A DNA stretch of 64,000 bases from the NCBI GenBank assembly GCA_044344255.1, contig JBIJDH010000002.1:263893-327892 (forward strand), read 5' to 3'. This document shows positions 40,256 to 56,115 of this stretch, piece by piece (within the stretch, counting starts at the first letter, position 1; every line of letters starts with the position of its first letter). A model generated the notes under the pieces. The model made no database searches. It worked only from the letters and a program-made list of their open reading frames with translations, and was not told the DNA's origin. A program made the translations under genes and the position numbers. This DNA is from Myxococcota bacterium (lineage in GTDB: Bacteria; Myxococcota_A; UBA796; UBA2385).

Positions 40256-40745
40256 AGATACAGAGCGTCGCCTCGTCTGCGACGTCGCGGCCGAATTGGA
40301 GCTGCACCCCTTTGATCTCGTCCGGGCGGCGACCAACATCGGCGTCATGGGCCCCTCGTTCACCTTCGGGGAGGAGGAGCTCCGGAGCCTCATCGCCGAG
40401 CTTGGGATCGAGCCGTGGTGGGCTGCGGACGAGGCCGCGGCGTGGCCGACCACCGAGCCCGAGCGTGGCGTCGCGCTCGGGCGCGCCCTGGCGTGGAAGC
40501 TGGTCGCGCTGAAGCCCACAGAGTCGCAGCCCACTCGTGCCGACAACCTGTACCGAGGGGTCGGATCAGACGACAGGCGCCGCCTCCGCAAGCTGATCAA
40601 CGACCTGATCCGCCACGGGGTGCTGTCCAGCATGGCCACCCCGCGCGGGATAGAGGTTTTCCTGCGCTCGGAGGGGCTGGATTTGCTGGAGCAGCTGGCC
40701 GATGAGGCGTCCCCTCCGGAACTCTTCGCGGAGCTCGGCCGATGA
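40242..40745 (+). CDS. hypothetical protein
   Basis: 167 aa. Overlaps the upstream gene by 14 nt and the downstream gene by 4 nt (operon context). Confidence 0.5.
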   Translation: MVATEDTERRLVCDVAAELELHPFDLVRAATNIGVMGPSFTFGEEELRSLIAELGIEPWWAADEAAAWPTTEPERGVALGRALAWKLVALKPTESQPTRADNLYRGVGSDDRRRLRKLINDLIRHGVLSSMATPRGIEVFLRSEGLDLLEQLADEASPPELFAELGR

Positions 40746-42322
40746 ACGATCCACAGCCTCCAAGGGGCTCCCGCCTCTTTCACGCAGATCCGGGCCTCCT
40801 CCTGCTCGACGAAGACGTCACGATGGGGTCGATGGGCGCCGCGGACGATCCGTTCGCGGCCGAGCCGATCCTGAACGGGAGCTGGTCGGCCGCTGGGGAG
40901 CGGCTTCGCGTGCACCGCGAGCCGCTGCGCGTGGTGGTGGGCGCCAACGCGGAGGGTGGGCGGCCCGCGGCACAGGCGGGAGAGCCGCTGCGCGTGGGCC
41001 CAGCCGCGCACGGCTCCCTCGATCCGATCGCCGTTCGCCTGGAGAGCGCGCCCACGAACCCCTCGTTCGGGGAGGCCGGCACGGCTCGACGCGCCGCTGA
41101 CTGGGCTCGCTCGACGTCTCCATCCTCGGCTGCGCCGCACGCCCTGGCGCGGAGCCCTGTCTGGGACGCCTCCGCTCTGGGCGATGAGGAGGAGAGCGAG
41201 AACGAGCCGGTGGAGGGCCCCCATGTCATTGACGACGTCTCGGGCGAGATCGTCTCCCCGCTCCGCTTCGGCATTCGGCCCGACCTCCGCGCCGCGCCGC
41301 GGCCGCCCACCTCCGTTCGGGTCCCCTGGCGGAGCTCGTCGGGAGATCAGGAGATCGAGGGGGAAGAAGAGGCGTCGGGGGAGGTCCTTCCCGTCCGACG
41401 CTCGCCCCACGACGCCGGAGCGTCGGGCGAGGCGGGCGCTGAGGACGCTGAGGACGCTGAGGACGCTGAGGGCGCTGAGGGCGCTGGCGCCGAGTCTTTG
41501 CAGGTCCCCGCCTTTGGTTCCCACGAAAATGATTCGCTTGATCCTGGCGCTCCGCCGGCTTGGGGGGCCCAGCTGGAGCCCCTGCCTTGGGAGTCGGGCG
41601 AGGCTGGGGCCGACGCTTGGGGCGAGAAGCTCCCTTTGGAGCAGGACCTCGAGGGTGAGGATCCCACGGGTCAGATCGCCGGTGGCTCGCCAGCCGGGGA
41701 GCGAGGGGCCGCCGCTCAGCCGGCCGCTCGCAGCGCCGGGGGGCTGCCTCCGCTCGCCCAGGTTGGGATGGGGGCGCTCCTTGTCCTCCTCGTCGCGGTC
41801 GTGGTGGTCCAGCTGATCGAGCCCCCCGAAGGGCGCGCCGGTCGCGGGGGCGCGGCCCGGCATCGTACGGCGTTGACCGGGGATGAGGCATCCGGCGCTT
41901 ATGCCGTGGATGGCTCGGCCCCGGTCGCGGGTGCCGACGGAGGGGTGGCCAAGGCCGATGTCGATGCTGACGCCAATGGCGAGGTCGATGCCGAAGCCAA
42001 GGTCGATGTGAACGCAGGCGGCGCGCCCGAGCCGCAGGGATCGGTCTCGGAGTGGCTGCCCTCCGACGACGCCAGTCGTCGCCAACGCCTCTCAAACCTC
42101 GATCACCAAGGCCTGCTCGAAATTGTCACCGATCGTCCGGCGCGTGTCTGGGTGGGAGACCGCGAGATCGGCACCACGCCCCTCTCTCCGGTGGCCCTCC
42201 CGCAGGGCACCTACGACGTGAAGGTGATGCCGGTTGGCGGCGGGCGCGCCGTCTTCGAGGGCCGGGTTCGGGTGGATGCGAGTCGTGTGCGGCAGATCAA
42301 TTTTGAGATCGCTGAACGCTGA
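40742..42322 (+). CDS. PEGA-domain membrane protein with acidic low-complexity region
   Basis: Single TM (GALLVLLVAVVVVQLI) and C-terminal PEGA-like domain (..RVWVGDREIGTTPLSPVALPQGTYDVKVMP..). Acidic AEDAEDAEDAEGAEG repeat encoded by 9-bp tandem repeats. Confidence 0.65.
   Translation: MNDPQPPRGSRLFHADPGLLLLDEDVTMGSMGAADDPFAAEPILNGSWSAAGERLRVHREPLRVVVGANAEGGRPAAQAGEPLRVGPAAHGSLDPIAVRLESAPTNPSFGEAGTARRAADWARSTSPSSAAPHALARSPVWDASALGDEEESENEPVEGPHVIDDVSGEIVSPLRFGIRPDLRAAPRPPTSVRVPWRSSSGDQEIEGEEEASGEVLPVRRSPHDAGASGEAGAEDAEDAEDAEGAEGAGAESLQVPAFGSHENDSLDPGAPPAWGAQLEPLPWESGEAGADAWGEKLPLEQDLEGEDPTGQIAGGSPAGERGAAAQPAARSAGGLPPLAQVGMGALLVLLVAVVVVQLIEPPEGRAGRGGAARHRTALTGDEASGAYAVDGSAPVAGADGGVAKADVDADANGEVDAEAKVDVNAGGAPEPQGSVSEWLPSDDASRRQRLSNLDHQGLLEIVTDRPARVWVGDREIGTTPLSPVALPQGTYDVKVMPVGGGRAVFEGRVRVDASRVRQINFEIAER
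41438..41482 (+). repeat. (GCTGAGGAC)x3 + (GCTGAGGGC)x2 9-bp tandem repeat encoding AEDAEDAEDAEGAEG
   Basis: Read directly. Confidence 0.85.
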
Positions 42323-43432: not shown

Positions 43433-44848
43433 TCAAGGTCCGGACTTCTTGGCCTTGGTCGCCGCGAGGTTGGAGCGCGCCCGCGCGGTGGTCTCGGCCA
43501 GGGTGCTCCCCAATCGCCGGAGGTCGGCCTCGGGCACGTCGCGGGGATCGATCGCGTAGAGGTTTGGCATGCCAGCCTTGCCCTTGACGGGGATCGGCGG
43601 CAACCGACGGGCGGGGATGGCGTCGCCCAGGGCGTTGAAGGTCGGCTCGCTCACGATGATGCTGGTGCCCACGGAGCGGTTGAGCGACTCCAGGCGGGCG
43701 GCGAAGTTGACGGTGTCACCGATGCAGGTGAACTCCATCCGCTCGAGCGAGCCGATGTTGCCGGCCACCACGGGCCCAGTGGCGATGCCGACGCCGATGT
43801 TCAGCGGGGGGCGGCCGCTCTCCTCGGTGCCCATGCGGGCGTTCAGGGCCTCGACCGCGCGGATCATCTCCAGCGCGACGACGACCGCGCGGAGCTCCTG
43901 CTGCTCCAGGTCGAAGGGGACCCCGAAGACCGCCATGAGCCCGTCGCCCAGGAATTTGTCCAAGGTCCCCCCGTAGCGGAAGACGATGGCCACCATCTCG
44001 GTGAAGTAATCGTTCAGCAGCTTCACGATCTCTTCGGGCTCGGTGGACTCGGCCAGCGGCGTGAAATTCCGGATGTCGGAGAAGAGGATGGTGGCGTGCC
44101 GCCGTGAGCCGCCGAGGCGGAAGCCGGCCTCGTCGGCGGTGACGAGCTCGGCGAGGTCAGGGGAGAGGTACTTGGCCAGCCGCTCTCGCTGACGCTCGAC
44201 CTCGGCGCGCTGCATGGACTCCTGCTCGGCCCGGACGAGGAGCCCCTTGGAAACGAAGGCGATGACGCCGGCGAGGAGCGCGGGCAGGGTCAGGAAGGCG
44301 ATTCGCATCAGCTCGTCGCCAATGTTGATCTCGTTCTTTCCGTAGACAGAGACGGGGCTCACGGGGATGAGATGGCCGACCACCACGTAGGCAAGCACGC
44401 CCGATCCGAGGATCACCGTCACCAACGCGGAGTACATACAGGCGGGTACGCTGTACCGGAGACCCGACATCACGTTGAACAGAACGAGGGCCAAGGGGAA
44501 GAACGACTGATAGTACTCGATGGCGCCGGCGTGATTGGCCTCTGCAGCGAAGATCGCGGCGTGAAAGGTGGCCAAATCGACGAAGATGCTCACGTACTTC
44601 AGCCAGCCCATGTACTCGTCGCGGTGAGCGCGAAAATAGGCAAGCAACGCGACGCTGTACAAGACGAGGACAGAGGACTGCCCAATGAAGACCAAGTTGG
44701 CGAAGAGGGTGTTGATGCCCCACATCGTCGCAACCATTCCACCGGTGAGAATGCCGAGCACGAGGCGAATCCAGGCGACCTGGCGTTCGCCTCGCATCTC
44801 CGCGCTCCGGAGAATTTCCTGAATCTGATCGAGATTGTTCACACGCAT
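43433..44848 (-). CDS. membrane-bound class III adenylate/guanylate cyclase
   Basis: About 6 N-terminal TM helices, then a CHD catalytic domain (..ATILFSDIRNFTPLAE.., ..FLGDGLMAVFG.., ..TCIGDTVNFAARLE..). Confidence 0.9.
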   Translation of the reverse strand: MRVNNLDQIQEILRSAEMRGERQVAWIRLVLGILTGGMVATMWGINTLFANLVFIGQSSVLVLYSVALLAYFRAHRDEYMGWLKYVSIFVDLATFHAAIFAAEANHAGAIEYYQSFFPLALVLFNVMSGLRYSVPACMYSALVTVILGSGVLAYVVVGHLIPVSPVSVYGKNEINIGDELMRIAFLTLPALLAGVIAFVSKGLLVRAEQESMQRAEVERQRERLAKYLSPDLAELVTADEAGFRLGGSRRHATILFSDIRNFTPLAESTEPEEIVKLLNDYFTEMVAIVFRYGGTLDKFLGDGLMAVFGVPFDLEQQELRAVVVALEMIRAVEALNARMGTEESGRPPLNIGVGIATGPVVAGNIGSLERMEFTCIGDTVNFAARLESLNRSVGTSIIVSEPTFNALGDAIPARRLPPIPVKGKAGMPNLYAIDPRDVPEADLRRLGSTLAETTARARSNLAATKAKKSGP

Positions 44849-46515
44849 GGGGGGAGTGGCTTCTCCGGTGCTGGCAGCGGTCGGAGGCTCATGGCTCGGA
44901 CGCAGAGGGCGGTGGTGACCTCAACGCTCCGATAGTACACGATATTATCCAAGGACTTCCCTGGCATCCGGTAGAAGTCTTCGGCCGCCCAGGAGCCGTC
45001 TGGGTGCTGTGCGCCAGAGAGGTATCTCCGCGCGGCTCCCGCCACCAGGGCTGCCGTGGGGTCCGAAGCCAGCGACTCCAGGGCGAAGGCCGTCTTCATC
45101 GGTGATCCGAAGCTGCCGTCGGCGCGCTGCTCCTTCGCCCACGCCTCCCGGTCGAGCTGACGCCGGGCGGTGACCGCGGCCTCGAGCTCGGGGGTGACCA
45201 GCCCGGCGGGGAGCCGATCGACCACACGATGGAAGATCAGTCGGGCGTACGGCGCCGAGTAGAAGAGGTCTCCGTGCTCCGGCTCGTCATCGAATTGCCG
45301 AAGCAGGAGGGCGAGGTTGGCCTCGATGAGCCGCGCGTGTCCGGGCGGGTCCCAGGCCAGCAGGCCGAGGAGGAGGTGCCCCCGGACCGTCGCGCAGCGA
45401 TCGAAGGGCCAGCTTCGAATTGGCTCGTCGAGCGTCGGCCGACCGTCCGGCCAGCGGGTGAACCAGACGGGCGTGGCCCCTGCGGGATCGACGTTCGGCG
45501 CCAGCAGCCGCAGCCAACCCTCGACGCGCGCCGTCGGCCGATCGGGCAGCAGGGCCGCGACGGACAGCATCATCCCGAGAGAGTCGGCGTCGGGTGGAAT
45601 GCCCTGCCAGGAGCCGTACCAGCGCAGGTTGTCGGGCTCAGCGGCCTCGAAGGCGCGGAGGAGGCTGGCGGGGCGACGGGCGCCTGCCTCCCAAAGGGCG
45701 AGGAGCACGAGCGAGGCGGGGAAGATCTGCTCCACAAGCGGCTCGTCGTGGAGGCCGAGACCCCAACGCTGCACCTCCCAGGCGCCGGTGAGCATGGGGT
45801 CGCGGTCGAGGAAGGCGATGGCCTCCTCGATGTCGCGCCGAAGGTCGCCCGATGTGGGCTCTCGACGAGGCGGCCGCCAGAGGCAGGCGAGGGCGTGGAG
45901 AGCTGCGATGGTTTCGACGCGGTCGAGGGCCGCGCGCACCTCTTCCGCCCAGCGGCGGAGGGGGGGGGCCCAAGCTGCATCAAAGGGGAGGTTGAGCAGC
46001 CCCAAGATCGAAGGCTCGAGCGCAGCTCGCAGCTCAGCGCGACCGGCGGCGAGGAGGCCTCGGAGAGCGTACACGGCCGTGGCGGAGGTCCGCTCGTCGG
46101 AGAGGCGACCCCGCAGCGCAGGCCAGATCGAAGTGCCCTTAAGGAGGAGCAGAAGTGAACGAGCGGCAGGGGACAGGAGGTCGGGCGGAGTTGGGCTCCA
46201 CCACTGATCCCACCAGGCACGGCCAATATCGTCGAGGCGCGCGGCCACCTCCAGCCAAGACAGCGCCGCGTCCAGGTCGTCGTCGTCGCGGCCCTCACCG
46301 TCCGTCGGCAGGAGCTGGAGGCCAAAGTTGATCAGGGCCCGCCGTTCACCAGCGGCCCCCATGGCCGACGCGGCTCGGAGCAGGCCCCGGAGAGCAGGCC
46401 TCCGTGCGAGCAGCTCGACCCAGGCATCCGCGGCGCGGAGGGGATCGGCGTCCACGAGACCGGACGTGGGATCCGCGGGAACGTAGGGCGTTCTGAGCGG
46501 TGGGCTCCCCACCAC
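44839..46515 (-). CDS. prenyltransferase/squalene-oxidase (alpha/alpha-toroid) repeat protein
   Basis: 558 aa with QW-like repeats (..AKEQRADGSFGSP.., ..GAQHPDGSWAAEDFY..). Overlaps the cyclase gene by 10 nt. Start is 50 bp downstream of the small peptide gene. Confidence 0.65.
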   Translation of the reverse strand: MVGSPPLRTPYVPADPTSGLVDADPLRAADAWVELLARRPALRGLLRAASAMGAAGERRALINFGLQLLPTDGEGRDDDDLDAALSWLEVAARLDDIGRAWWDQWWSPTPPDLLSPAARSLLLLLKGTSIWPALRGRLSDERTSATAVYALRGLLAAGRAELRAALEPSILGLLNLPFDAAWAPPLRRWAEEVRAALDRVETIAALHALACLWRPPRREPTSGDLRRDIEEAIAFLDRDPMLTGAWEVQRWGLGLHDEPLVEQIFPASLVLLALWEAGARRPASLLRAFEAAEPDNLRWYGSWQGIPPDADSLGMMLSVAALLPDRPTARVEGWLRLLAPNVDPAGATPVWFTRWPDGRPTLDEPIRSWPFDRCATVRGHLLLGLLAWDPPGHARLIEANLALLLRQFDDEPEHGDLFYSAPYARLIFHRVVDRLPAGLVTPELEAAVTARRQLDREAWAKEQRADGSFGSPMKTAFALESLASDPTAALVAGAARRYLSGAQHPDGSWAAEDFYRMPGKSLDNIVYYRSVEVTTALCVRAMSLRPLPAPEKPLPPCV

Positions 46516-46565: not shown

Positions 46566-46796
46566 TCAGCTCGCGGCTCGCCGGTCAGCGAAGGCAGCGT
46601 CGAGGTTCGCGGCGGCGGCTTCGGCAGCAGCGGGATCCATGCCCTTGAGCTGCCCCATGATCTCGGGGCTCACCTCGTAGCCCTCGGCGGCGATCGTCGC
46701 CTCGGGGTCCGTCAAGAGGCGGCGTCGGAAGTCGGGATCGATCACCGCGCGACCGATCAGCGAATCAGTACCCTTCTCAGAGGAATTCTTACCCAT
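46566..46796 (-). CDS. small helical peptide, NHLP/Nif11-leader-like (76 aa)
   Basis: MGKNSSEKGTDSLIGRAVIDPDFRRRLLTDPEATIAAEGYEVSPEIMGQ.. parallels the LI-K-A--D--F---LL--P-A-I--E-G---PE helix pattern of NHLP/Nif11-type leader peptides. First 11 codons are unusually low-GC. Reading frame is open and GC3-rich thereafter. Confidence 0.5.
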   Translation of the reverse strand: MGKNSSEKGTDSLIGRAVIDPDFRRRLLTDPEATIAAEGYEVSPEIMGQLKGMDPAAAEAAAANLDAAFADRRAAS

Positions 46797-47109
46797 GTCT
46801 CAAGTCCATTGGTGTTTTGGGTTTGGGTTGGCTGCTGTCGGGAGCTGGGAGCGGGGCGCGATCCGTGCAGGGTGATGAGCCGGATCCCTCAAAGGGTGCC
46901 GGGCGGCTTGCAAGGGACCACGATTCTGGTAAGGTCGCGCAATTAGGCGGCTTATCGAGACAGACCGGCTCGGGTGCCTCGGCCAAGCGACTGCGATTTG
47001 TGGGTCACCCGAGGGGGGGGGCGGTTGACCGCCGCCCACGGTTGAGGAGGGTCACTTTTCCTGCTAACGTGAAGTTTTAGCAACGCCCAATGCAAGGTTC
47101 GAGGATCTC
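46797..47109. promoter_or_regulatory. 313-bp divergent intergenic region between the leader-like peptide gene and the RRE-M50 gene
   Basis: Contains a G9 run followed by the near-palindrome GGCGGTTGACCGCC, an AT-richer segment (cttttcctgctaacgtgaagttttagcaacgcccaatgcaagg) with GCTAA/TTAGC inverted repeat, and the motif CTGGTAAGGTCGCG. Confidence 0.4.
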
Positions 47110-48342
47110 GTGCAACCCAATGAGCGCCCCGCGCGCGCCGGGCTCCAGCTGTTGATCCGCAAGTCGGACGACGCGGGGGCGGGCTACGAGATCCGAACCG
47201 TACACAGTAGTCAGGCGTTTCTGCGAATGCGCCCAGTAAGGGCAGCGATCCGTGCGGTAGAAGAGAACGTCGTCGACGAGGCGGCGGGGAAGGTGCACGT
47301 CCTCCGGCTGGAGGGTGCAGGCTTGGTCACGGCGCAATACTTGAGGTTGAACGAGCGGGAGCGCTTTATCTGGCAGCACGTGGATGGTGACCACACCATC
47401 CAGGACATCGCCGCTGCGCTCTTCTTTCGGTTTGGTTCACTGGACGTGCGGGACATACGTAGCTTCCTCCATCGTGCCCGACAGGCTGGGCTGATCGCGA
47501 TGCAGGCGGAGACCCCTCTTCGGCAGCGTGCGGTGGCTCGGGGGGGAGCGTTGGGCCGGCTCTTGGACCGCCTCCCTCGGCTGGAGCGGCGCTGGCGCGA
47601 TGTGGACGCCGGTTTCGCCCGCGCTCACGTCCTCTTCGGGTGGCTGCTGTCTCGACCCGCGAACGTGCTCTTGGCGGTGCTCGCCGGTGCGGGAGCGGCC
47701 GTCTATGCCCGTTATCGATTCTCTGGACAGCTGGGTGAGGCGGCCTGGCCATTCTTTGTCGATATCGCCCTTTGGATTGTGATCCTCCTGACCTCCATGG
47801 CCCTCCACGAGCTGGCCCACGGTCTGCTCACCAAAGCACATGGACGGAAGGTGAAGGCCGTTGGTATGGAGCTCCTTGACTCGATCGTTCCGAGTTTCTA
47901 CGTAGACATCACCGACATGTGGATGTCCACTCAGCTTGGACGAATCGAGGTCACGCTCGCGGGTCCCTGTACCAACCTCCTCCTCGGTGGGCTGGCGGCC
48001 CTGACCGCGGGCGCCGCCCAGGCCTTGGGGGCCCCGGCCGCGCTCGGTGAGGTGCTCTCGCTGTGTGCGGACGCAAATTATGCACTTGCTATCTACACAC
48101 TTTGGCCGTTCTTCGGTCTTCGAGAAGACGGCTACGAGCTGCTGACCGACGTCCTCCGCGTGCCGGCGCTGCGGCCGCGGGCGGTGCACGTCCTCCGTGA
48201 GTGGGCCGATCGCAGCCTCCCGCGTGAGCCTGACCTCCATCTTCGAGGGGCGGCGGTGATCTACCTCGCGGGGGTGCTGGCCACCTGGATCGGGCTCCTG
48301 GTGGCGTTCCTCACCGTCGTCTCTCGGTTCGTCGGGGGCTGA
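47110..48342 (+). CDS. PqqD-like RiPP-recognition-element domain fused to site-2 protease (peptidase M50) membrane domain
   Basis: Residues ~75-140 (YLRLNERERFIWQHVDGDHTIQDIAAALFFRFGSLDVRDIRSFLHRARQAGLI) follow the PqqD consensus (LNE-t-a-iw-l-DG--t---I---l---f-----DV--FL). Downstream TM region carries HELAHG (HExxH) plus a ..PFFGLREDGYELL.. LDG-like motif, as in M50B proteases. Confidence 0.72.
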   Translation: MQPNERPARAGLQLLIRKSDDAGAGYEIRTVHSSQAFLRMRPVRAAIRAVEENVVDEAAGKVHVLRLEGAGLVTAQYLRLNERERFIWQHVDGDHTIQDIAAALFFRFGSLDVRDIRSFLHRARQAGLIAMQAETPLRQRAVARGGALGRLLDRLPRLERRWRDVDAGFARAHVLFGWLLSRPANVLLAVLAGAGAAVYARYRFSGQLGEAAWPFFVDIALWIVILLTSMALHELAHGLLTKAHGRKVKAVGMELLDSIVPSFYVDITDMWMSTQLGRIEVTLAGPCTNLLLGGLAALTAGAAQALGAPAALGEVLSLCADANYALAIYTLWPFFGLREDGYELLTDVLRVPALRPRAVHVLREWADRSLPREPDLHLRGAAVIYLAGVLATWIGLLVAFLTVVSRFVGG

Positions 48343-51300
48343 GGTCACCCTCGGAGGCCGGCGATCTTGCTTGGAGCGGGAGGTTGTCGGTGGTGTCCTC
48401 CTCTTCGGCCGCATGGGTGCGGGCGGCGGATGGGACCTCGGGGGTCCAACGACCGCGCAGGCGCGCGTGCCCCCAAGCGTCGCCGTCCTGGTCGGCCTCT
48501 TTGCAGCGCCGCTCGAGGTCGGGGATTGGGCGGTTCGACTTCAGGGCCAGACCGTACAAGAGCCGCTGAAGGTGGACCAGGTTGTATCGGTGCGCCACGA
48601 CGAGCTCTGCGCTGATGTCGCCCGGGAGGGCCACTTCGAGGCGGAGGCGAGCTTCGGCGAGCCGGATGCGGAGGAGCAAGGCGTCGTGCGGATCCTCGAG
48701 GTCGGCAGTGTCGAGGCTGCCGATCACGGCCGCCGCGCCCTCCCGATCTCCGATCAAGGTGAGCGCAAGCCCGATCTCTCCGTGGAGCATCGGCGAGGCC
48801 ACGGGATCGAGCCACTCTGCGGGCACTGACCCGCGGCGATCGAGCCAGACCGAGAGGGCCTCCCGATCCCCGTAGGTCGCGGCGGAGAAGAGCCCCGCCC
48901 GCAACACCTGCACTGCGACCGCCCGGCCCGGGCGCCGGCGAAGCAGGGCCCAGGCGGCCTGGAGCGAGGCACGGGACCCCTCCGGGTGGCCCACGATCGC
49001 CTGAACCACGCTCAGATCGGCGAGGACGCCGCAATGGAGCTCGGGGTCGTCCAGGCGATCGGACAGGGCCGCGGCGGCCTCAAGGCGACTCAGCGCCAGC
49101 CGGATCTGCCCTTGACGGAGGTGGATGAGGCCCATCAAGTGCTGAGCGCCCACCTTGCCGCGGCTGTCCCGCTTCCCCGCGCTATGGGTGAGCAGGTCGC
49201 GGATCGGGCGCTCGGCCTCGGCCCACCGACAGAGCGCGACGGTGATCGTCGCCTCCATCCACGCGAGGTCAAACCTTCGCGGGGTCGGCGCGGCGGCTGA
49301 GGTGGTGAAGCGCTGCGCCTCCCTGAGGTCGCGGTCGGCGTCGTTCCATCGGCCGAGGCCGGCCTGTGCGCGGGCCAGGAGTACGGCCCATCGCAGGGCC
49401 CCCTCCGCCCGGCCCTCGAGCTCGTCGGCGGTGATGGCGTCTGTGAAGCCGGCGCGCGCTTCGTCGGCGCAGGCCGCGTAGCGGCCCTGGCGCAGGGCGC
49501 AGCGAGCGGACTCCATGCGCGCGCTGTGGCGCTCGGCGAGCGTGGCGGCCACCTCAGCGGCGCGGGCGGCGTGCGCGAGACAATCGGCGTCGCGACCGAG
49601 CTGAAAGGCAATTCGGGCCCGGGTGATCTCGATTCGATGGCGCAATGGGCCCGAGCCGGGAGCGGCTCCGCTGGGTCGGGCCAGCCAGGCCGAGGCGTCC
49701 GCGGGGCCGTGCTCGAGCAGCGCTTGCTCCGCCTCGGTCACGGCGGTCTCCCACGCGACGTCCCCGCGGTGCTCTCGCGGCGCCGCCGGGGTCCTGGGCG
49801 CCTGCCGCTCGGCCCAGGCGCGGGCGAGGCGCACCAGCGCCGCCGGGTTGCCGGCGAGCTCTCCCGAGTGGGACCAAGCGAGCTCCGGTCCTGCGTCGTC
49901 GATCATCGAGCGGGCCATCTCGGCGAGCTGGCCGGGGGTGAGCGATCTCAGCGCGATCCGCTCAGCGGGCAATCGGATGCGATCGGGCTGGTGGCTGGCC
50001 AGCACGAGCATGGCGTTGCCGTGGAGCGCGGCGAGATCGGCGGGGTCGACGCGCTCCGCGTCGTCGATGGCGATGAGCAAGGGGCGCTGCGCGACCGCCC
50101 GCCGCACCACCCGGCCCGTGGCTGCTTGGAGGCGGCTGATGGCCGAGCGCACCTGGTGAGTGGGCCCCTCTTCCTCGTCGTCGTCCTCGGGCTCTCCCTG
50201 GTTGAGCGAGGGGACGGCCTCGAACAAGAAGCCGCGATCGTCGCCGAGCAGGTGGCGACGGGTGGCGATGGGGATGAGGGGCCCCACGAGGGCCTCCAGC
50301 ACCGCGGAGAGGATGTCGGGGCGGCCGGAGAGCAGGACCTGTCGGCCTCCGCGCAGCAACACCTCGCCCCGCAGCTCGGAGAGGGCGCGGCTCAGCCCGA
50401 TCCCGGGCGGTCCGTGGACGATGACCGTGGCTCGCTCTGCGTTGAGGGTGCGATCTCGCAGCAGGCGGAGCGGCCCCCGATCGCCCACCCACCGCGAGGT
50501 CAGCGCCCGCGGGCGCCAGGGCAGGGGCTGGGCAGGCTCTCCGGCGGCGCGGCAGAGGACCCACGCGACCTCGCGGGCGGAGCGCGGTCGGTCCGCGGGC
50601 GCCTTCTCCAAGAGCCGCTCCACCAAGGCGACGACCTCTGGCGGTGCGCTGGGAGCGAGGTCGGCCAGCGGGGGCGGCGTGGCGGTGCAGACCGCCAAGA
50701 CGAGGTGTGCGAGGTCCGGCCCTGCGAAGGGGGGCTGCCCCGTGAGCAGCTCGTAGATGACGACCCCGAGCGCGAAGAGGTCAGCGCGAGAGTCCACCTC
50801 CATCCCGGTGAGCTGCTCGGGGGCCATGTACCGTGGGGTGCCGGTGATGGGGCCGGAGATGGGGTCACCGGGGCGCAGGTCGATCCGGCGGGAGAAGCCG
50901 AAGTCGATCAGGCACAGGCGACCGACCGCATCCACGAGGATGTTGTCGGGCTTGACGTCCTGGTGCACGAAGCCAGCCTCGTGCACGGCGGCGAGGCCGA
51001 GCGCGAGCTCACCAGAGAGGTGGAGGATGGCCTTGAGGCGGGCCCCTGCGGGCTGGTCTTCGAGCCATCGGGTGAGCGTGCGCCCCTCGACCAGCTCCAT
51101 CGCGAGCCAGGCCCAGTCTCCCTCCTCGCCGCCGCCGAGCAGCGTCACGACCCGAGGATCTGAGACCGCGCTGAGGGCGGTGACCTCGCTCGTGAGGCGA
51201 TGGAAGAAGCGCGACTGGCTGCGGTGAACCAGCTTCACGGCCGCGAGCACGCCGGCCCGCTCCGCGCGGACCACCTCGCCCGCCGCGCCCTGGCCGAGGC

Positions 51301-51373
51301 GCTCAAGCAGCGTGAAGCCCCCGATCTGGGTGAGCGGCAGGGCGTCGAGGCGGTGGTTCGTCGGCTCAGACAT
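48311..51373 (-). CDS. Ser/Thr protein kinase fused to NTPase and TPR-like repeat region
   Basis: Start at Met 47 of the track ORF. Kinase motifs GQGAAGEV, HQDVKPDNIL, DFG, PRYMAPE. Then a P-loop-like region (..VIVHGPPGIGLSR..) and about 500 aa of helical repeats. 3' end overlaps the convergent M50 gene by 32 nt. Confidence 0.88.
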   Translation of the reverse strand: MSEPTNHRLDALPLTQIGGFTLLERLGQGAAGEVVRAERAGVLAAVKLVHRSQSRFFHRLTSEVTALSAVSDPRVVTLLGGGEEGDWAWLAMELVEGRTLTRWLEDQPAGARLKAILHLSGELALGLAAVHEAGFVHQDVKPDNILVDAVGRLCLIDFGFSRRIDLRPGDPISGPITGTPRYMAPEQLTGMEVDSRADLFALGVVIYELLTGQPPFAGPDLAHLVLAVCTATPPPLADLAPSAPPEVVALVERLLEKAPADRPRSAREVAWVLCRAAGEPAQPLPWRPRALTSRWVGDRGPLRLLRDRTLNAERATVIVHGPPGIGLSRALSELRGEVLLRGGRQVLLSGRPDILSAVLEALVGPLIPIATRRHLLGDDRGFLFEAVPSLNQGEPEDDDEEEGPTHQVRSAISRLQAATGRVVRRAVAQRPLLIAIDDAERVDPADLAALHGNAMLVLASHQPDRIRLPAERIALRSLTPGQLAEMARSMIDDAGPELAWSHSGELAGNPAALVRLARAWAERQAPRTPAAPREHRGDVAWETAVTEAEQALLEHGPADASAWLARPSGAAPGSGPLRHRIEITRARIAFQLGRDADCLAHAARAAEVAATLAERHSARMESARCALRQGRYAACADEARAGFTDAITADELEGRAEGALRWAVLLARAQAGLGRWNDADRDLREAQRFTTSAAAPTPRRFDLAWMEATITVALCRWAEAERPIRDLLTHSAGKRDSRGKVGAQHLMGLIHLRQGQIRLALSRLEAAAALSDRLDDPELHCGVLADLSVVQAIVGHPEGSRASLQAAWALLRRRPGRAVAVQVLRAGLFSAATYGDREALSVWLDRRGSVPAEWLDPVASPMLHGEIGLALTLIGDREGAAAVIGSLDTADLEDPHDALLLRIRLAEARLRLEVALPGDISAELVVAHRYNLVHLQRLLYGLALKSNRPIPDLERRCKEADQDGDAWGHARLRGRWTPEVPSAARTHAAEEEDTTDNLPLQARSPASEGDLSPRRTERRR

Positions 51374-51425
51374 CCACGACCAGATAACGGGGAGCATGAC
51401 CGGCGCCCTCTCTTCGCGACTACAC

Positions 51426-52289
51426 ATGCTCTCACCGCTCCGGTCGGTCAGGGCTTCGCGGGTGAAGCCCGGTGGGGGCTGTGCAGCCCTCTGGCCGCTC
51501 CTGCTCGCCACGGCCTGCTCCGCGCCGCCGGTTGCCCGTGATCGGGACCGCTACCTCGCCGTCCTCGCTGATCCTGAGCTTGAGCCGAGCGTAGGCCTCG
51601 GCGCTTGCGCGGAGATCTCGGATGATGACCTGCGCGGCGACTGCGGGCTGGCCGTGGTCAGCGCCGAGGCGCGTCGGAGGGGAGGAGCGCCCGAGCGCTG
51701 GTGTGGAGAGGTGGAGGCCGGACCGTGGCGGGACGAGTGCTACTTCGTCGCCGCCGAGGCGCATCGTAAGCGGGGGCGCGAGCAGAGCGCGGCCTGGCTC
51801 TGCGGGCAAGCGGGTCGCTTTGTGGACGACTGCGGGCAGCACCTCTGGCAGACCGCGGTGTACTCTCTCGTCCACAACAACGGCCCCGACGGGATCTCCG
51901 CCGCGCTCCCCCGCGCTCGACAGCTGTACGCACGATGGCTGCCCTTGCTCGGGGAGACCACCGACTTCAAGGTCCGCTTTTGGGAGCGCTACTATCAAAA
52001 CGGCTTCGAGGGACTCGGGACGCTCGATCTGCGGTGGTGTGACCGGCTCGACCTCGAGGAAGACCGACGGCGCTGCGTCGCCGCGGCGGTGAAGCTCTAC
52101 GACCGAGAGCTGGGCCCAGGGATTCAGCGGGGAAGAGTCAATCTGTGCGCCGAGCGCTTGACCTCCGGGGAGCTCCAGGACTGGGTCCACGCCGTCCCGG
52201 ACCCCCGCTTCGACGCCGCCGTCGACCGTCGCCGCGTGGAGCTCTGCGGCGGCGACACGACCCCTCCTCCGCCGGCCCCGCCGCCTTGA
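51426..52289 (+). CDS. Cys-rich lipoprotein, hypothetical
   Basis: Signal ..MLSPLRSVRASRVKPGGGCAALWPLLLATAC SAPP. Many conserved-looking Cys and Trp. Start is Met 39 of the track ORF (Met 29 also possible). Confidence 0.5.
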   Translation: MLSPLRSVRASRVKPGGGCAALWPLLLATACSAPPVARDRDRYLAVLADPELEPSVGLGACAEISDDDLRGDCGLAVVSAEARRRGGAPERWCGEVEAGPWRDECYFVAAEAHRKRGREQSAAWLCGQAGRFVDDCGQHLWQTAVYSLVHNNGPDGISAALPRARQLYARWLPLLGETTDFKVRFWERYYQNGFEGLGTLDLRWCDRLDLEEDRRRCVAAAVKLYDRELGPGIQRGRVNLCAERLTSGELQDWVHAVPDPRFDAAVDRRRVELCGGDTTPPPPAPPP

Positions 52290-53018
52290 TCAGCGGAGGT
52301 GGGCCCCGAGCTCGACGCCGGCCTGTACGAGCCACCACTCCTCGAGCGCCGTGGGGTCGAGCCCGCTCCGCTGGGTCGCCCAGCTGGCGCGGAGGAGCAG
52401 GTCCGCGAAGCTGCGATCGGTCACCCGGCGACGAAGCCCGGCCTCAAAGCTGAGGGTGGGGAGCGCCAGCGGCCCACCGTGGTAGGCGTCGAGGTCGAGG
52501 CGGCCGAAGCCGAGCCCGAAGTCGGGGCTGAAGGGGGCGGAGGGGTCACCGCGCAGCACGCCCAACACGCCGTAGTGGATGTAGTCGATGGCGATCTCTT
52601 CGGTGGCCTCCGCCTCGGCGCCAGAGGTGGGGTTGGTCGCCTCCCCGCTTGGCTCCAGCGCCACCTGTCCGGGCCAGACCGAGGTGGCCCCCCAGAGGCT
52701 GAGCCCGAGGCGGGGGCCGCTCGCTGCGCGGCTGACCGCGAAGGCGTCGTAGCGGAACATCAGCGCGCCGTGGACCCCGGACTCCGGCCAGGGGCCTGCG
52801 AGGGTGCCCGCGAGGTAGCCGAGGGCGAGGTCGGCCCCGAAGGGGGGCGGATCGTCGGGAGTGGGCGCCTGGTCGCGCCGATCCGGGGTGGAGGGCGGCG
52901 GCGCTGGGGGCGGCGGGAAGGTGATCGGCCCCTCGGCCCAGCCCTCCGAGGCGGCGCCGATCATGGCTCCGCAGAGGAGGGCGAGGCGCGAGGCGAGCGG
53001 GCCGAGGCGGGAGTTCAT
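52290..53018 (-). CDS. secreted beta-rich protein (possible outer-membrane barrel)
   Basis: Start Met 240 of the track ORF, overlapping the GHMP kinase stop (ATGA). Signal MNSRLGPLASRLALLCGAMIGAASEGWA, then alternating hydrophobic pattern. Confidence 0.5.
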   Translation of the reverse strand: MNSRLGPLASRLALLCGAMIGAASEGWAEGPITFPPPPAPPPSTPDRRDQAPTPDDPPPFGADLALGYLAGTLAGPWPESGVHGALMFRYDAFAVSRAASGPRLGLSLWGATSVWPGQVALEPSGEATNPTSGAEAEATEEIAIDYIHYGVLGVLRGDPSAPFSPDFGLGFGRLDLDAYHGGPLALPTLSFEAGLRRRVTDRSFADLLLRASWATQRSGLDPTALEEWWLVQAGVELGAHLR

Positions 53019-54019
53019 GAGGGCCCCGTGAGGGCCGACCAGGCCGAGAGGCCCGCCAGCCCGAGGTGATGGATGGCGGCGCGGGCGCTCTCCTCGTCGG
53101 GGAAGAGCGCGATCACGGAGCCGTCTCCGCCAGCGCCGGAGAACTTGGCCCCCAGAGAGCCCGACTCTCGGAGGGCGCGACAGGTCCGGATGAGCTCGGG
53201 GGCGCGGAGCTCCGGGACGACGGCGGCCATGTCTTCGTAGGCCTCTTGGGCGGTGTTCATCGCCACACCGAGGCGCTCGGGCTCCCCCTGCTCGAGGGCG
53301 CCGGCGGCAGCCTCGGCGAGGCTGGCGAAGAGGGCGAGGCCCTCCCGCACCGCGCGCACCGCCTCGGGGTGGAGGGGGGCGCGGAGGTCGTCCTCGTGGT
53401 GCCGATGCAGCGCGCTGAGGATGGCGCCAGTGTTCCTCGGCGCCTTGAAGGCCGCGAGCACAAAGTGGAAGTCGTGAGCGGGCCGGACGCGCCGGAGCGG
53501 CGCCGTGCCTTCGCGCCACTGCAAGAAGACCGGGGAGCCGGCGACGCAGGCGAGGGGGTCGAGGCGCCCGCACTCCACGCCGAGCAGGTCGTGCTCCAGG
53601 CGAAAGGCGAGCTCGGCCAGCTCCTCGGCGTCGAGCACGCAGCCCGCGTGTCGGGAGAGGGCGTCGAGCACGGCGAGGCTGAAGGCCGCGGACGAGGAGA
53701 AGCCTCGGCCAGGCGGCAGGGTGGAGTACACCCACAGCAAGGCGGGAGGGAGGACCAGCCCCCGCTGGTGGAGGAGCGCGGCGGCGGCGGGCACGAAGCG
53801 GAGCGCGCCGCCCGCGCGGTCGATCCGCCCGCGGATAGGCCAGCGGCCCTCTTGCAGCTCCCCGTCGAGCGCGGTGCGGACGCGCAGGTCTCGCTCCGCC
53901 TCCTCCACGGTCACCTGGACGCTCAGGGGCAGGGGGATGGCGAGGCTGGCGCCGCCCGCCCAGTCACAATGCTCTCCGATCAAGCAGGCTCGACCTGGAT
54001 ATCGAACCGTCAGCGACAT
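53015..54019 (-). CDS. GHMP kinase family protein
   Basis: ..LPPGRGFSSSAAFSLAVLDAL.. phosphate-binding motif and N-terminal ..GRACLIGEHCDWAGG.. typical of GHMP kinases. Confidence 0.85.
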   Translation of the reverse strand: MSLTVRYPGRACLIGEHCDWAGGASLAIPLPLSVQVTVEEAERDLRVRTALDGELQEGRWPIRGRIDRAGGALRFVPAAAALLHQRGLVLPPALLWVYSTLPPGRGFSSSAAFSLAVLDALSRHAGCVLDAEELAELAFRLEHDLLGVECGRLDPLACVAGSPVFLQWREGTAPLRRVRPAHDFHFVLAAFKAPRNTGAILSALHRHHEDDLRAPLHPEAVRAVREGLALFASLAEAAAGALEQGEPERLGVAMNTAQEAYEDMAAVVPELRAPELIRTCRALRESGSLGAKFSGAGGDGSVIALFPDEESARAAIHHLGLAGLSAWSALTGPS

Positions 54020-54333: not shown

Positions 54334-56115
54334 TCAGGCGCCGGCTTCCTCGGTCGGAGGTGAGAGGGCGCTCGGCATCGAGGCGAGCTGCATGGACAGC
54401 CAGAGGCGGTTGAGGGACTCCGCCTCGCGCACGGTCAACGAATTGAAGGCGCAGCCCGCCCGACGAAGCTCGGGGAGGTCGGGGAGGGCCTTCGTGTACC
54501 GAACCACCGCCGCGACGCGGACTTGATGGTTACGGAAGCGGATGTCGAAGACGAGGGGTGTCCCCACCTCCACGCTGGCGGGCAACAGCAGGCTGCAGCC
54601 GCCGAGCGAGAGGTTGGAGAGGTGGACCTTCTCGCTCCCGTCGCCGTTCGGCCAGGGGAGACGGGGAGAGATCGTGGACCAGAGCTCCAAAGAGCCCACA
54701 GCGCGAAAGCTGGCGCGGCGATCGGAGCGGCCAAGGTAGACGATGTCCTCGACGCGGGCCTCGCGCTCCGCCGTCACGAGGCCGGGGAGCGTCACCGGCA
54801 GCCGGGCGCCGATGATGCGGCGAAGGTTCTCGGCGTAGATGCTACGGATGCGCATCGGCGGCCGGATCAGGTGGCAGACGTCGGTGGGGTCGGTCTCGTG
54901 GGAGATCCGCTCGCGGACCTCGTCCACCTCGATCGCCGGCTCGTCGGCCTCCACGTGTCCCGTGCCGTCCAGGCGCAACACCCGGAGCTCGTCCCCGTGC
55001 ATCACGAGCTGGGCCCGCTCGAAGCAGGAGCGCCCAACATGCTTCCAGACGCTGGCGACGAAGTCTGGGCGCTGCTGGCGGCGGGCGAGGCGCCCCAAGG
55101 TGAGGGGGTCGGTGCAGACGCCCCCCGGCTCGCTGGGGGGATCGTCCACGAGGGTCATGGGCAGGAGGCGCTCGGCGATCTGGTCGAATTCGCCGAGCGC
55201 GTCGTCCATCAGGAAGGAGTGTCGCTCACTTCGGGTCTCCAAGGTGAGGTGATCGCGCTCGGCCCCTTCGACGGCCACCCTCCGTACGGTGGACCAAGGG
55301 ACCTCCCTCGCCTCACCTTCATGGACGAGCCCAGTGAGCCCGTGGACGGCGAAGTGAAAGCCATGATCGGTCATCAGCATCTTGCCGGTCTGCTGAACGG
55401 GCCCTCGGGTCACGCCGATGTCGATCAGCCGCAGGCCGCTCGAGCGGAGCGGCCGCTGGGCGCCGACGCCCATGGCGACGAGGGCTCCGAACACCGGCCA
55501 CACCAGGGCGCCCTCCAGCCGCACCTCGCCCGCGGGGGTGGAGATGACGAGGAGGCGACCGGCGTGCAGGAGGGTCGTGTGGGAGATGTCCCGGTGCGCG
55601 ACGGACCACTCCGCGCGGTTCAGCAGCAGGCGCTCAAGGCCGCTCGGTCGGAAGCGGAGGCCGTCGGTGGTGAGCCTCAGCTCGCCGGCGGTCGACATGA
55701 GGCCGTCGGTGGAGCGGGTGGCGGAGCCGCAGATGAGCAGGCGCCCCGGGGCTTCGGAGGCTGGCTGCGAGAGCAGCACCTGGAGGAGCGAGACGGCGAT
55801 TGCGTCGTTGTACTTGCTGACCAGCTTTCGGCGCTCCGAGCCCGCGTGGACGACCAGGTTTCGGTCGACTCCGACCATCTGGAGGTGGTCCAGGGATTGG
55901 AGAGGGAGCGCCCAGCCGCCCCGCGTGGCCGGCTCGAATTTGACCTCGCCACTTTCGACCGAGATAAAGCCGCGGCGAGACAACAGGCCGGTGTTGTCGA
56001 GCACCGCGAAGCGCAGGGGCGGGGCCCCCGCTCCGCCACCGAGCGTCTGCTCGGGAGCGCCGGCGTGGGCGGCCGTCGAGGGCAGAGCGGATGGCGCTGA
56101 AGCGACGGCGGGCAC
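54334..56115 (-). CDS. multidomain protein with C-terminal PilZ domain
   Basis: C-terminal ..EKVHLSNLSLGGCSLLLPASVEVGTPLVFDIRF..VRVAAVVRYT.. matches the PilZ c-di-GMP-binding fold pattern. N-terminal 450 aa unassigned. Confidence 0.65.
   Translation of the reverse strand: MPAVASAPSALPSTAAHAGAPEQTLGGGAGAPPLRFAVLDNTGLLSRRGFISVESGEVKFEPATRGGWALPLQSLDHLQMVGVDRNLVVHAGSERRKLVSKYNDAIAVSLLQVLLSQPASEAPGRLLICGSATRSTDGLMSTAGELRLTTDGLRFRPSGLERLLLNRAEWSVAHRDISHTTLLHAGRLLVISTPAGEVRLEGALVWPVFGALVAMGVGAQRPLRSSGLRLIDIGVTRGPVQQTGKMLMTDHGFHFAVHGLTGLVHEGEAREVPWSTVRRVAVEGAERDHLTLETRSERHSFLMDDALGEFDQIAERLLPMTLVDDPPSEPGGVCTDPLTLGRLARRQQRPDFVASVWKHVGRSCFERAQLVMHGDELRVLRLDGTGHVEADEPAIEVDEVRERISHETDPTDVCHLIRPPMRIRSIYAENLRRIIGARLPVTLPGLVTAEREARVEDIVYLGRSDRRASFRAVGSLELWSTISPRLPWPNGDGSEKVHLSNLSLGGCSLLLPASVEVGTPLVFDIRFRNHQVRVAAVVRYTKALPDLPELRRAGCAFNSLTVREAESLNRLWLSMQLASMPSALSPPTEEAGA

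Follow-up and report, generated by a model that had tools for sequence, protein, structure and literature searches.

In daptide biosynthesis, the leader is removed from the precursor by MpaP, which Ren et al. (2023, Nat Commun 14:1624) described as "an RRE-dependent intramembrane peptidase", where RRE denotes the recognition element of RiPPs, peptides that are made by the ribosome and modified after translation. Daptide precursors in that study carry an ELExMEAP motif and end in an invariant Thr, the decarboxylase of the pathway is strictly Thr-specific, and the models given for the DapP proteins (Actino_/Bacill_DapP_RRE) represent actinobacteria and bacilli. The same fusion of an N-terminal RRE to an M50 site-2 protease (S2P) is encoded at positions 47110-48342 of a 64-kb stretch of DNA from a Myxococcota bacterium (contig JBIJDH010000002.1), and this whole stretch is referred to below as the window. 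A first-pass annotation of the gene had recognized both domains and could match their combination to no established family. The domain calls have stood up and the statement about the family has not, because daptide MpaP/DapP has the same fusion, the NCBIfam model NF041824 describes it, and 3,320 homologous clusters were found. Judging from sequence and gene context, the window protease seems to represent a clade of its own, so far uncharacterised, with ties to signalling and not to natural-product tailoring.

The resemblance to MpaP/DapP extends over both domains, with NF041824 aligning to aa 75-397 of the 410-aa product, and it includes an adjacent small precursor-like open reading frame (ORF) and a presumed logic in which the RRE binds a leader and the S2P cuts. 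There are nonetheless several differences. The score against NF041824 is 87.7 bits, whereas the equivalog cut-off of that model is 300, and the window protease has an extra N-terminal beta extension (aa 1-46). Its partner is a folded protein of the NHLP clan that lacks both a hydrophobic core and the ELExMEAP motif and ends in ...RRAAS. The clade is tied or fused to cyclic nucleotide monophosphate (cNMP)-binding and FHA domains, and it is found in Myxococcota, Rokubacteria and Binatia. None of DapB (DUF-RRE), DapC (Fe-dependent alcohol dehydrogenase), DapD (aminotransferase) and DapM (methyltransferase) was found near the protease or among the recurrent neighbours in 80 related loci.

The S2P SpoIVFB of Bacillus subtilis cleaves a substrate that is not transmembrane (TM), Pro-sigmaK, and has a nucleotide-sensing cytoplasmic domain. 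Given this background and the fold match between the window protease and SpoIVFB (PDB 8VJL), the SpoIVFB/Pro-sigmaK pair would be the closest functional analogue. SpoIVFB carries a C-terminal CBS domain and acts on a sigma factor, whereas here the RRE is N-terminal, the proposed nucleotide input would come through a separate or fused cNMP domain, and the candidate substrate is a 76-aa NHLP-like protein. The NHLP/Nif11-type leaders (TIGR03793 clan) are related to that small protein, which passes the cut-offs of both NF038399 and PF14407; in this case, however, there is a single copy with no Gly-Gly motif, C39-peptidase ABC exporter or hypervariable core, and the protein consists of a leader domain and a conserved basic tail (R-R/K-A-A-x or R-R-x-A-T).

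Two further membrane proteases that process peptides can be compared. The YydH/LiaK epipeptide protease (NF058609) is likewise a membrane metalloprotease of the M50 type and acts on a RiPP precursor, and its KEGG name, "putative peptide zinc metalloprotease protein", is the one that was transferred to the window gene product in the JGI annotation. The match to NF058609 is only 34.3 bits, compared to a cut-off of 225, and is confined to the HExxH region (aa 222-292), and neither a radical-SAM epimerase nor a YydIJ transporter lies near this protease. TmcP (DUF3267, TMcins; bioRxiv 2026.05.31.729130) is an intramembrane protease of the S2P clan that removes a leader in a site-specific manner, but it has no RRE, only 4 TM helices and a membrane-integrated peptide substrate.

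Domain organization and active site of the protease

The gene and the elements that define its product are as follows (aa numbers refer to the protease).

47110-48342, plus strand: RRE-S2P fusion gene, 410 aa, GTG start; N-terminal beta extension, RRE/PqqD winged-helix domain and five-helix M50 core
47248-47505, plus strand: RRE (PqqD-like) domain, approximately aa 47-132
47806-47820, plus strand: zinc-binding/catalytic motif H233-E-L-A-H237, at the predicted cytoplasmic end of the TM helix at aa 215-243
48127-48132, plus strand: D340-G341, predicted third zinc ligand, within WPFFGLREDGY; equivalent of Asp148 in the mjS2P motif NLIPAFPMDGG

The N-terminal domain folds as a winged helix-turn-helix in which a three-stranded sheet (strands at aa 47-57, 60-69 and 76-81) is followed by three helices (aa 82-90, 97-108 and 113-125), and D92 and G93 within it are invariant. 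Pfam PqqD (PF05402) matches aa 75-129 with 28.0 bits, above the cut-off of 23.4. The region is therefore an RRE/PqqD domain, as first proposed, and neither a CBS nor a cNMP domain. Pfam Peptidase_M50 matches aa 223-305 with 28.8 bits (cut-off 27.2), and the structure model contains the S2P core fold; PbtF, TglI and LynD are named alongside the Pfam matches of the 410-aa protein. Despite the marginal Pfam scores, the structural evidence for both the RRE and the M50 domain is solid.

The active site was traced by aligning the family profile to mjS2P (3B4R; E 2.5e-5). The alignment runs from HELAHG/HELGHS through a beta-hairpin (YVDITD) and the AGP helix to WPF..ED340G/IPAFPMDG. H233-ELA-H237 is thereby paired with the HELGH of mjS2P, and H233 and H237 are nearly invariant in orthologues and invariant throughout the family. 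Within LWPFFGLRED340G341, residues P333, D340 and G341 are invariant, D340 and G341 also in the wider family, and D340 is assigned as the third zinc ligand because it aligns with the Asp-Gly of the mjS2P motif. The strings quoted in the first-pass annotation are all present, at aa 80-129, 233-238 and 336-341, and its reading of the membrane part as a site-2 protease is borne out by an HExxH inside the TM helix at aa 215-243 with the Asp-Gly motif downstream. By these sequence motifs, the product is an M50 site-2 protease with the zinc-site residues in place, and proteolytic activity is predicted.

Hydropathy and the structure model together predict TM helices at approximately aa 182-202, 215-243, 275-305, 310-331 and 376-409, with a beta-hairpin at aa 250-266 and amphipathic helices at aa 340-366. 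The HExxH lies at the end of TM2 on the side of the RRE, and D340 directly follows TM4. The Lys/Arg-rich segments (aa 140-180, 238-262 and 340-385) share that side with the N-terminal domain. Because these loops lie on the RRE side and the HExxH is at the corresponding end of TM2, the positive-inside rule leads us to infer a cytoplasmic orientation for the RRE and the active site alike. The predicted topology thus places the two on the same side of the membrane, and the check proposed with the first-pass annotation turns out in its favour.

Family distribution and the cyclic-nucleotide link

Word-indexed searches for homologues returned almost only the protein itself, and an exhaustive HMMER search of 1.84 billion representatives, together with a genome scan, was used instead. 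The 3,320 homologous clusters include 841 with E <= 1e-10, and the majority align over the RRE and M50 domains jointly. Orthologue alignment was then used to fetch 80 related loci from contigs representing one genome per species; these span Myxococcota (among them Polyangium fumosum DSM 14668, locus L011), Rokubacteria/Methylomirabilota, Binatia and further groups. What the first-pass annotation had overlooked is the most important part, the company that the fusion keeps: a divergent precursor-like gene and a link to cyclic-nucleotide signalling. The RRE-M50 architecture is known, while the clade and its signalling context appear undescribed as far as the searched literature shows; no description of a linkage between an RRE-M50 or site-2 protease and cNMP-binding or FHA domains was found in that literature.

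A stand-alone cNMP-binding homologue adjoins the protease gene in all 80 loci. Outside Myxococcota, the small ORF and the protease are separated by a constant gap of about 550 nt that holds a protein of about 150-170 aa, and four representatives of this gap protein score 63-91 bits against Pfam cNMP_binding. The position of the gene varies: Rokubacteria-type loci have it upstream, Polyangium has it downstream on the same strand, and the three closest relatives (L005, L012 and L033) have it downstream but convergent. The same association is seen within single polypeptides. Among the 150 closest family representatives, the following architectures were counted.

RRE-M50 only: 82
RRE-M50 followed by two cNMP-binding domains: 23
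Two cNMP-binding domains, then RRE-M50: 20
One cNMP-binding domain, then RRE-M50: 10
Three FHA and three cNMP-binding domains, then RRE-M50: 6
One FHA domain, then RRE-M50: 5
Three cNMP-binding domains, then RRE-M50: 2
One FHA domain, RRE-M50, then two cNMP-binding domains: 1
RRE-M50 matched in two stretches (P0051): 1

In sum, 62 of the 150 representatives have between one and three cNMP-binding domains fused to the protease, and 12 have FHA domains. In relatives the cNMP-binding protein is a universal neighbour or fusion partner and not the N-terminal domain itself. Adjacency in every genome and frequent fusion provide strong sequence-based evidence that the protease and the cNMP-binding domain are functionally linked.

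The ligand site of the partner protein differs between lineages, as scored for the stand-alone cyclic-nucleotide-binding (CNB) partners and not for the fused domains. The canonical phosphate-binding cassette (FGE/GEMSL..PRSAT) is kept in 64 of the 67 CNB partners outside Myxococcota. In all 13 Myxococcota copies (L005-L015, L033 and L072), the phosphate-binding Arg is lost (GELDVIDDQSASAN or GELSLIDNRPAAGN), and DDQSASAN or NRPAAGN stands in place of PRSAT.

M50 proteins of the P0152 type, which have HlyD/BSH domains, were set aside as a different class. A further locus (L085:3998-11158) encodes a 715-aa M50 protein with a barrel-sandwich-hybrid (HlyD-like) domain, an architecture distinct from that of the window protease, and the gene is flanked by two further HlyD-like genes and a SecA-like ATPase. 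This arrangement appears to represent a distinct, export-linked class of "peptide zinc metalloprotease".

The small NHLP-clan protein and the Myxococcota cassette

The second component of the core cassette is a small protein encoded divergently from the protease, across a short intergenic region.

46566-46796, minus strand: 76-aa NHLP-clan protein (Os1348/Frankia_peptide family), divergent from the protease gene; C-terminus ...ADRRAAS; putative RRE ligand/substrate
46797-47109, no strand: divergent intergenic region, 313 nt between the small-protein operon and the protease gene

The protein scores 60 bits against Pfam Frankia_peptide (PF14407; cut-off 48) and 70.1 bits against NCBIfam NF038399, "Os1348 family NHLP clan protein" (cut-off 40), and the NHLP-domain model covers aa 11-68. 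Against the canonical NHLP precursor model, TIGR03793, it reaches 23.2 bits, below the cut-off of 50.9. It is polar and Ala-rich, occurs once in the 64-kb window, and has neither a Gly-Gly motif nor a TM or hydrophobic segment in its sequence. A homologue directly adjoins the protease gene in 56 of the 80 related loci, with one copy per locus, and an independently gene-called contig with Pfam assignments (L086) shows the order Frankia_peptide (72 aa), protease (399 aa), cNMP_binding (167 aa). Experiments have shown that NHLP leaders, which are folded, dock on an RRE through helix alpha1 and a strand that extends the RRE sheet (PMC12455567), which makes a pairing of the small protein with the RRE mechanistically plausible.

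Two forms of the small protein can be distinguished. In Myxococcota the ORF is divergent from the protease gene and its product ends in ...R(R/K)AA-S/A/F/G, while outside Myxococcota the ORF is co-directional with the protease and the product has the invariant C-terminus ...(R/K)R(V/W/L/R)(A/S)-T. The latter ORFs lie just upstream of the cNMP gene (L016-L084, e.g. L055:9187-9447), and their invariant C-terminal Thr recalls the daptide precursors, with no daptide enzymes nearby. The conserved basic tail may serve as a degron, a phospho-site or a site of cleavage. A (D/N/T/S)-Pro pair is conserved about 23 residues before the C-terminus in both clades and might act as a helix-breaking cleavage determinant. 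If the small protein is cleaved, the cut would be predicted close to this Asp/Asn-Pro (aa 53-54) or within the RRAAS tail. Comparison of the last 15 with the first 35 alignment columns gave entropies of 1.33 vs 1.25 outside Myxococcota and 1.23 vs 0.92 within. By this sequence measure, the small protein departs from the pattern of conserved leader and hypervariable core of RiPP precursors.

The 313-nt intergenic region presumably holds promoters for both directions, although a scan for sigma-70 promoter and terminator consensus sequences gave no match there. It contains a perfect palindrome, GGCGGT-TG-ACCGCC (47020-47033), a possible operator site with a run of nine G residues in front of it.

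The Myxococcota version of the cassette has gained two genes, and both are present in the window, in an operon with the small-protein gene.

44839-46362, minus strand: terpene-cyclase-like protein, 507 aa, or 558 aa with the GTG at 46515 as start codon; shares an operon with the small-protein gene
43433-44848, minus strand: class III adenylate/guanylate cyclase, 471 aa, membrane-anchored; 10-nt overlap between its start and the stop of the gene upstream

The cyclase scores 94.6 bits against Pfam Guanylate_cyc and has an N-terminal domain with six TM segments, as judged from its translation. Its sequence contains FSDIRNFT, KFLGDG and FTCIGDTVNFAAR, which we read as a full set of metal-binding Asp residues together with the Lys/Thr substrate pair and the Asn/Arg residues. 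In a class III cyclase, such a set would suggest an active adenylate cyclase. Orthologues scoring 324-547 bits were found in 10 of the 13 Myxococcota loci, and the remaining three contigs are truncated on the upstream side; outside Myxococcota there was one weak match of 110 bits, and most of the 80 loci have no cyclase.

Only Myxococcota have the 507-aa protein, and its homologues include those of Sorangium (P0162 of Sorangium sp. So ce269) and of Polyangium. In a model of the 558-aa version built with 6 homologues, which is of moderate quality, the C-terminal ~300 aa are predicted to form a single-domain alpha/alpha barrel of the class II terpene-cyclase type, preceded by a helical N-terminal region of about 200 aa whose fold was not recognised. 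The motif PPD258-A-D260-S-L-G is invariant, so that DADS stands in place of DxDD. The protein has no Pfam match and reaches only 13 bits against TIGR01787. The presence of a terpene-cyclase-like gene in one operon with a peptide gene and a cyclase gene is an odd combination.

Other genes of the neighbourhood could not be assigned to the cassette. The nearest is the following.

48311-51511, minus strand: Ser/Thr kinase, 1066 aa, with AAA_16 and TPR; convergent, with a 32-nt overlap with the 3' end of the protease gene

The place of this kinase gene is exactly that of the cNMP-binding gene in the three closest relatives. The kinase was rejected as a part of the system since a homologue occurs in only one of the 80 loci, about 8 kb away; an input from the kinase is conceivable given the FHA fusions in 12 of 150 representatives, but this is speculative. 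The 328-aa and 526-aa upstream ORFs were likewise rejected as cassette parts, because they are not conserved with the protease in relatives. The 526-aa ORF (40742-42322, plus strand) has no Pfam match; its sequence includes low-complexity stretches and an acidic tandem repeat of short units (AEDAEDAEDAEGAEGAG). A few kb downstream of the protease are a GHMP-kinase gene (53015-54019, minus strand) and a gene for a 593-aa PilZ-domain protein of the c-di-GMP receptor type (54334-56115, minus strand), which together with the cyclase and the kinase make the region dense in signalling genes. The recurrent neighbours in Rokubacteria (DAHP synthase, a VTT-domain protein, threonyl-tRNA synthetase, an amidohydrolase, a fatty-acid desaturase and a solute-binding protein, SBP) were discounted as lineage synteny. 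Among the relatives, the flanks consist of housekeeping genes, including those for DAHP synthase, threonyl-tRNA synthetase, thymidylate kinase, DNA polymerase III delta' and methionyl-tRNA synthetase. In the core cassette, the 80 loci share no conserved modifying enzyme and no conserved exporter.

Proposed mechanism, alternatives and significance

Leader-guided cleavage of a peptide, as the first-pass annotation had envisaged, is the best-supported candidate mechanism, because of the daptide peptidase precedent, the conserved adjacent NHLP ORF and the published docking of NHLP leaders on an RRE. We lean, with little more than even confidence, towards RRE-guided cleavage of the small protein as a regulatory step in a signalling cassette rather than a step in natural-product maturation. 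The preference for a regulatory role over a tailoring one is based on the single small ORF per locus, its conserved tail, the lack of a conserved tailoring enzyme or exporter, and the housekeeping flanks. The analysis shows the domain identities, folds, catalytic residues, predicted topology, gene co-occurrence and fusions, whereas the substrate role of the small protein, the position of the cut, the way the signal runs with respect to the cyclase and the physiological outcome are inferred. In the model, the 76-aa protein would dock on the RRE by its folded, NHLP-like N-terminal portion. The conserved, non-hydrophobic tail (...DP-AAAEAAAANLDAAFADRRAAS) would then enter the H233/H237/D340 site at the inner face of the membrane and be cut. 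Outside Myxococcota, cleavage would probably be gated by cAMP or cGMP acting on the cNMP-binding domain next to the protease or fused to it, and in some relatives phospho-threonine would act by way of FHA domains. Gating by cNMP would be ancestral. The Myxococcota cassette would have gained the cyclase and the terpene-cyclase-like protein while its CNB partner, which is absent from the window, lost the phosphate-binding Arg; the proteolytic step would there be coupled to the membrane class III cyclase, in one direction or the other.

Several observations weigh against regulatory cleavage as just described. The Pfam scores of both the RRE and the M50 domain barely exceed their thresholds. S2P substrates seldom lack a TM or strongly hydrophobic segment as the small protein does, even though Pro-sigmaK and SpoIVFB provide a precedent. 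In 24 of the 80 loci there is no detectable adjacent small ORF (a fatty-acid desaturase gene is upstream instead in 11 of them), and the RRE may have another ligand in these cases. The loss of the Arg in Myxococcota suggests a degenerate or re-purposed ligand site, in the very lineage that gained the cassette cyclase, and a profile search of the 64-kb window found no CNB homologue (best E 2.2). Because the window lacks a CNB partner and the Myxococcota copies look degenerate, gating by cNMP may not apply to this organism.

The same genes could alternatively form a minimal RiPP cluster, in which the RRE-S2P removes an NHLP leader as in daptides and leaves a short C-terminal product, possibly tailored by the terpene-cyclase-like protein. 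In its favour, bona fide RiPPs make use of the clan to which the small protein belongs, and the homology of the protease to the daptide leader peptidase extends across both domains. In Myxococcota the operon also encodes an enzyme-like alpha/alpha barrel that has a DxD(S) motif, and the Rokubacteria-type small proteins end in an invariant Thr like the daptide precursors. What makes this explanation unlikely is that the tail is as conserved as the leader in a protein with one copy per locus and no hypervariable core, and that the NHLP model, by covering aa 11-68 of 76, leaves almost no core to be released. Furthermore, the core cassette has no conserved exporter, immunity gene or tailoring enzyme, no homologues of DapB/C/D/M were seen, and the window peptide ends in Ser, the daptide decarboxylase being strictly Thr-specific. 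The universal partner is instead a cNMP-binding protein, with fusions to cNMP and FHA domains and with housekeeping flanks. That the protease is a true DapP/MpaP orthologue whose partner genes lie elsewhere is scarcely credible: its best NCBIfam match is indeed NF041824, "daptide biosynthesis intramembrane metalloprotease", over both domains, but the score falls far short of the cut-off, the DUF-RRE, Fe-dependent alcohol dehydrogenase, aminotransferase and methyltransferase are absent from the window neighbourhood and the 80 related loci, and the adjacent peptide is of another family, without an ELExMEAP motif or an invariant C-terminal Thr.

In another version of events, the small protein would be an adaptor, pseudo-substrate or regulator bound to the RRE, and the true substrate would be a membrane protein encoded elsewhere, such as an anti-sigma factor or the cyclase. 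The conservation of the small protein over its full length, as in a folded protein, would fit such a role, as would its lack of a hydrophobic segment when classical S2P substrates are transmembrane or membrane-associated, the retention of the RRE in the 24 loci without an adjacent small ORF, and the conservation of the six-TM cyclase in the Myxococcota cassette. We nonetheless regard it as improbable, given that in every characterised case the RRE recruits a peptide that is subsequently processed, that no conserved anti-sigma/sigma pair or other candidate membrane substrate recurs across the loci, and that outside Myxococcota the core cassette does not include the cyclase. An anti-phage module of the Pycsar type, in which the cyclase produces a cyclic nucleotide upon infection, a cNMP-binding protein senses it and the membrane protease is the effector, is very unlikely indeed. 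The cyclase matches PycC models with 97 bits in PADLOC, and the CNB neighbours in relatives match the CNB part of Pycsar TIR effectors with 30-39 bits, but these matches are generic and at the level of the fold (class III cyclase, CNB). No PADLOC model is matched by the protease, by the small protein or by the terpene-cyclase-like protein; the window cyclase possesses a six-TM N-terminal domain, most loci lack a cyclase, the window lacks a CNB protein, and the flanks are housekeeping genes rather than defence islands.

Regulatory cleavage of the small protein can be extended, more tentatively and at less than even confidence, to the clade as a whole: it may represent a signalling mechanism of bacteria that had gone unrecognised, namely intramembrane proteolysis gated by cNMP and phospho-threonine. 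Machinery of the RiPP type would serve as a regulatory switch, with an RRE recognising a folded NHLP-like protein and passing it to a site-2 protease, and this switch would have been rewired in Myxococcota to a membrane adenylate cyclase and a terpene-cyclase-like protein. RRE domains serve as a class-independent marker of RiPP gene clusters, and such a marker next to an NHLP-family precursor would flag the members of this clade as RiPP clusters even though their conserved partners are signalling parts. If the proposal is correct, it would therefore be a warning to genome miners that a large family includes non-biosynthetic members, exemplified by the 62 of 150 representatives with fused cNMP domains, and it would mean that recognition between RRE and NHLP partners is also put to use beyond secondary metabolism. 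The known regulation of site-2 proteases involves PDZ domains and CBS/ATP; cyclic-nucleotide input would join these, and the small protein would provide a defined soluble substrate for studying how substrates are delivered to S2Ps. For the Myxococcota bacterium itself, four genes of the window that were formerly "hypothetical" are now annotated as one cassette.

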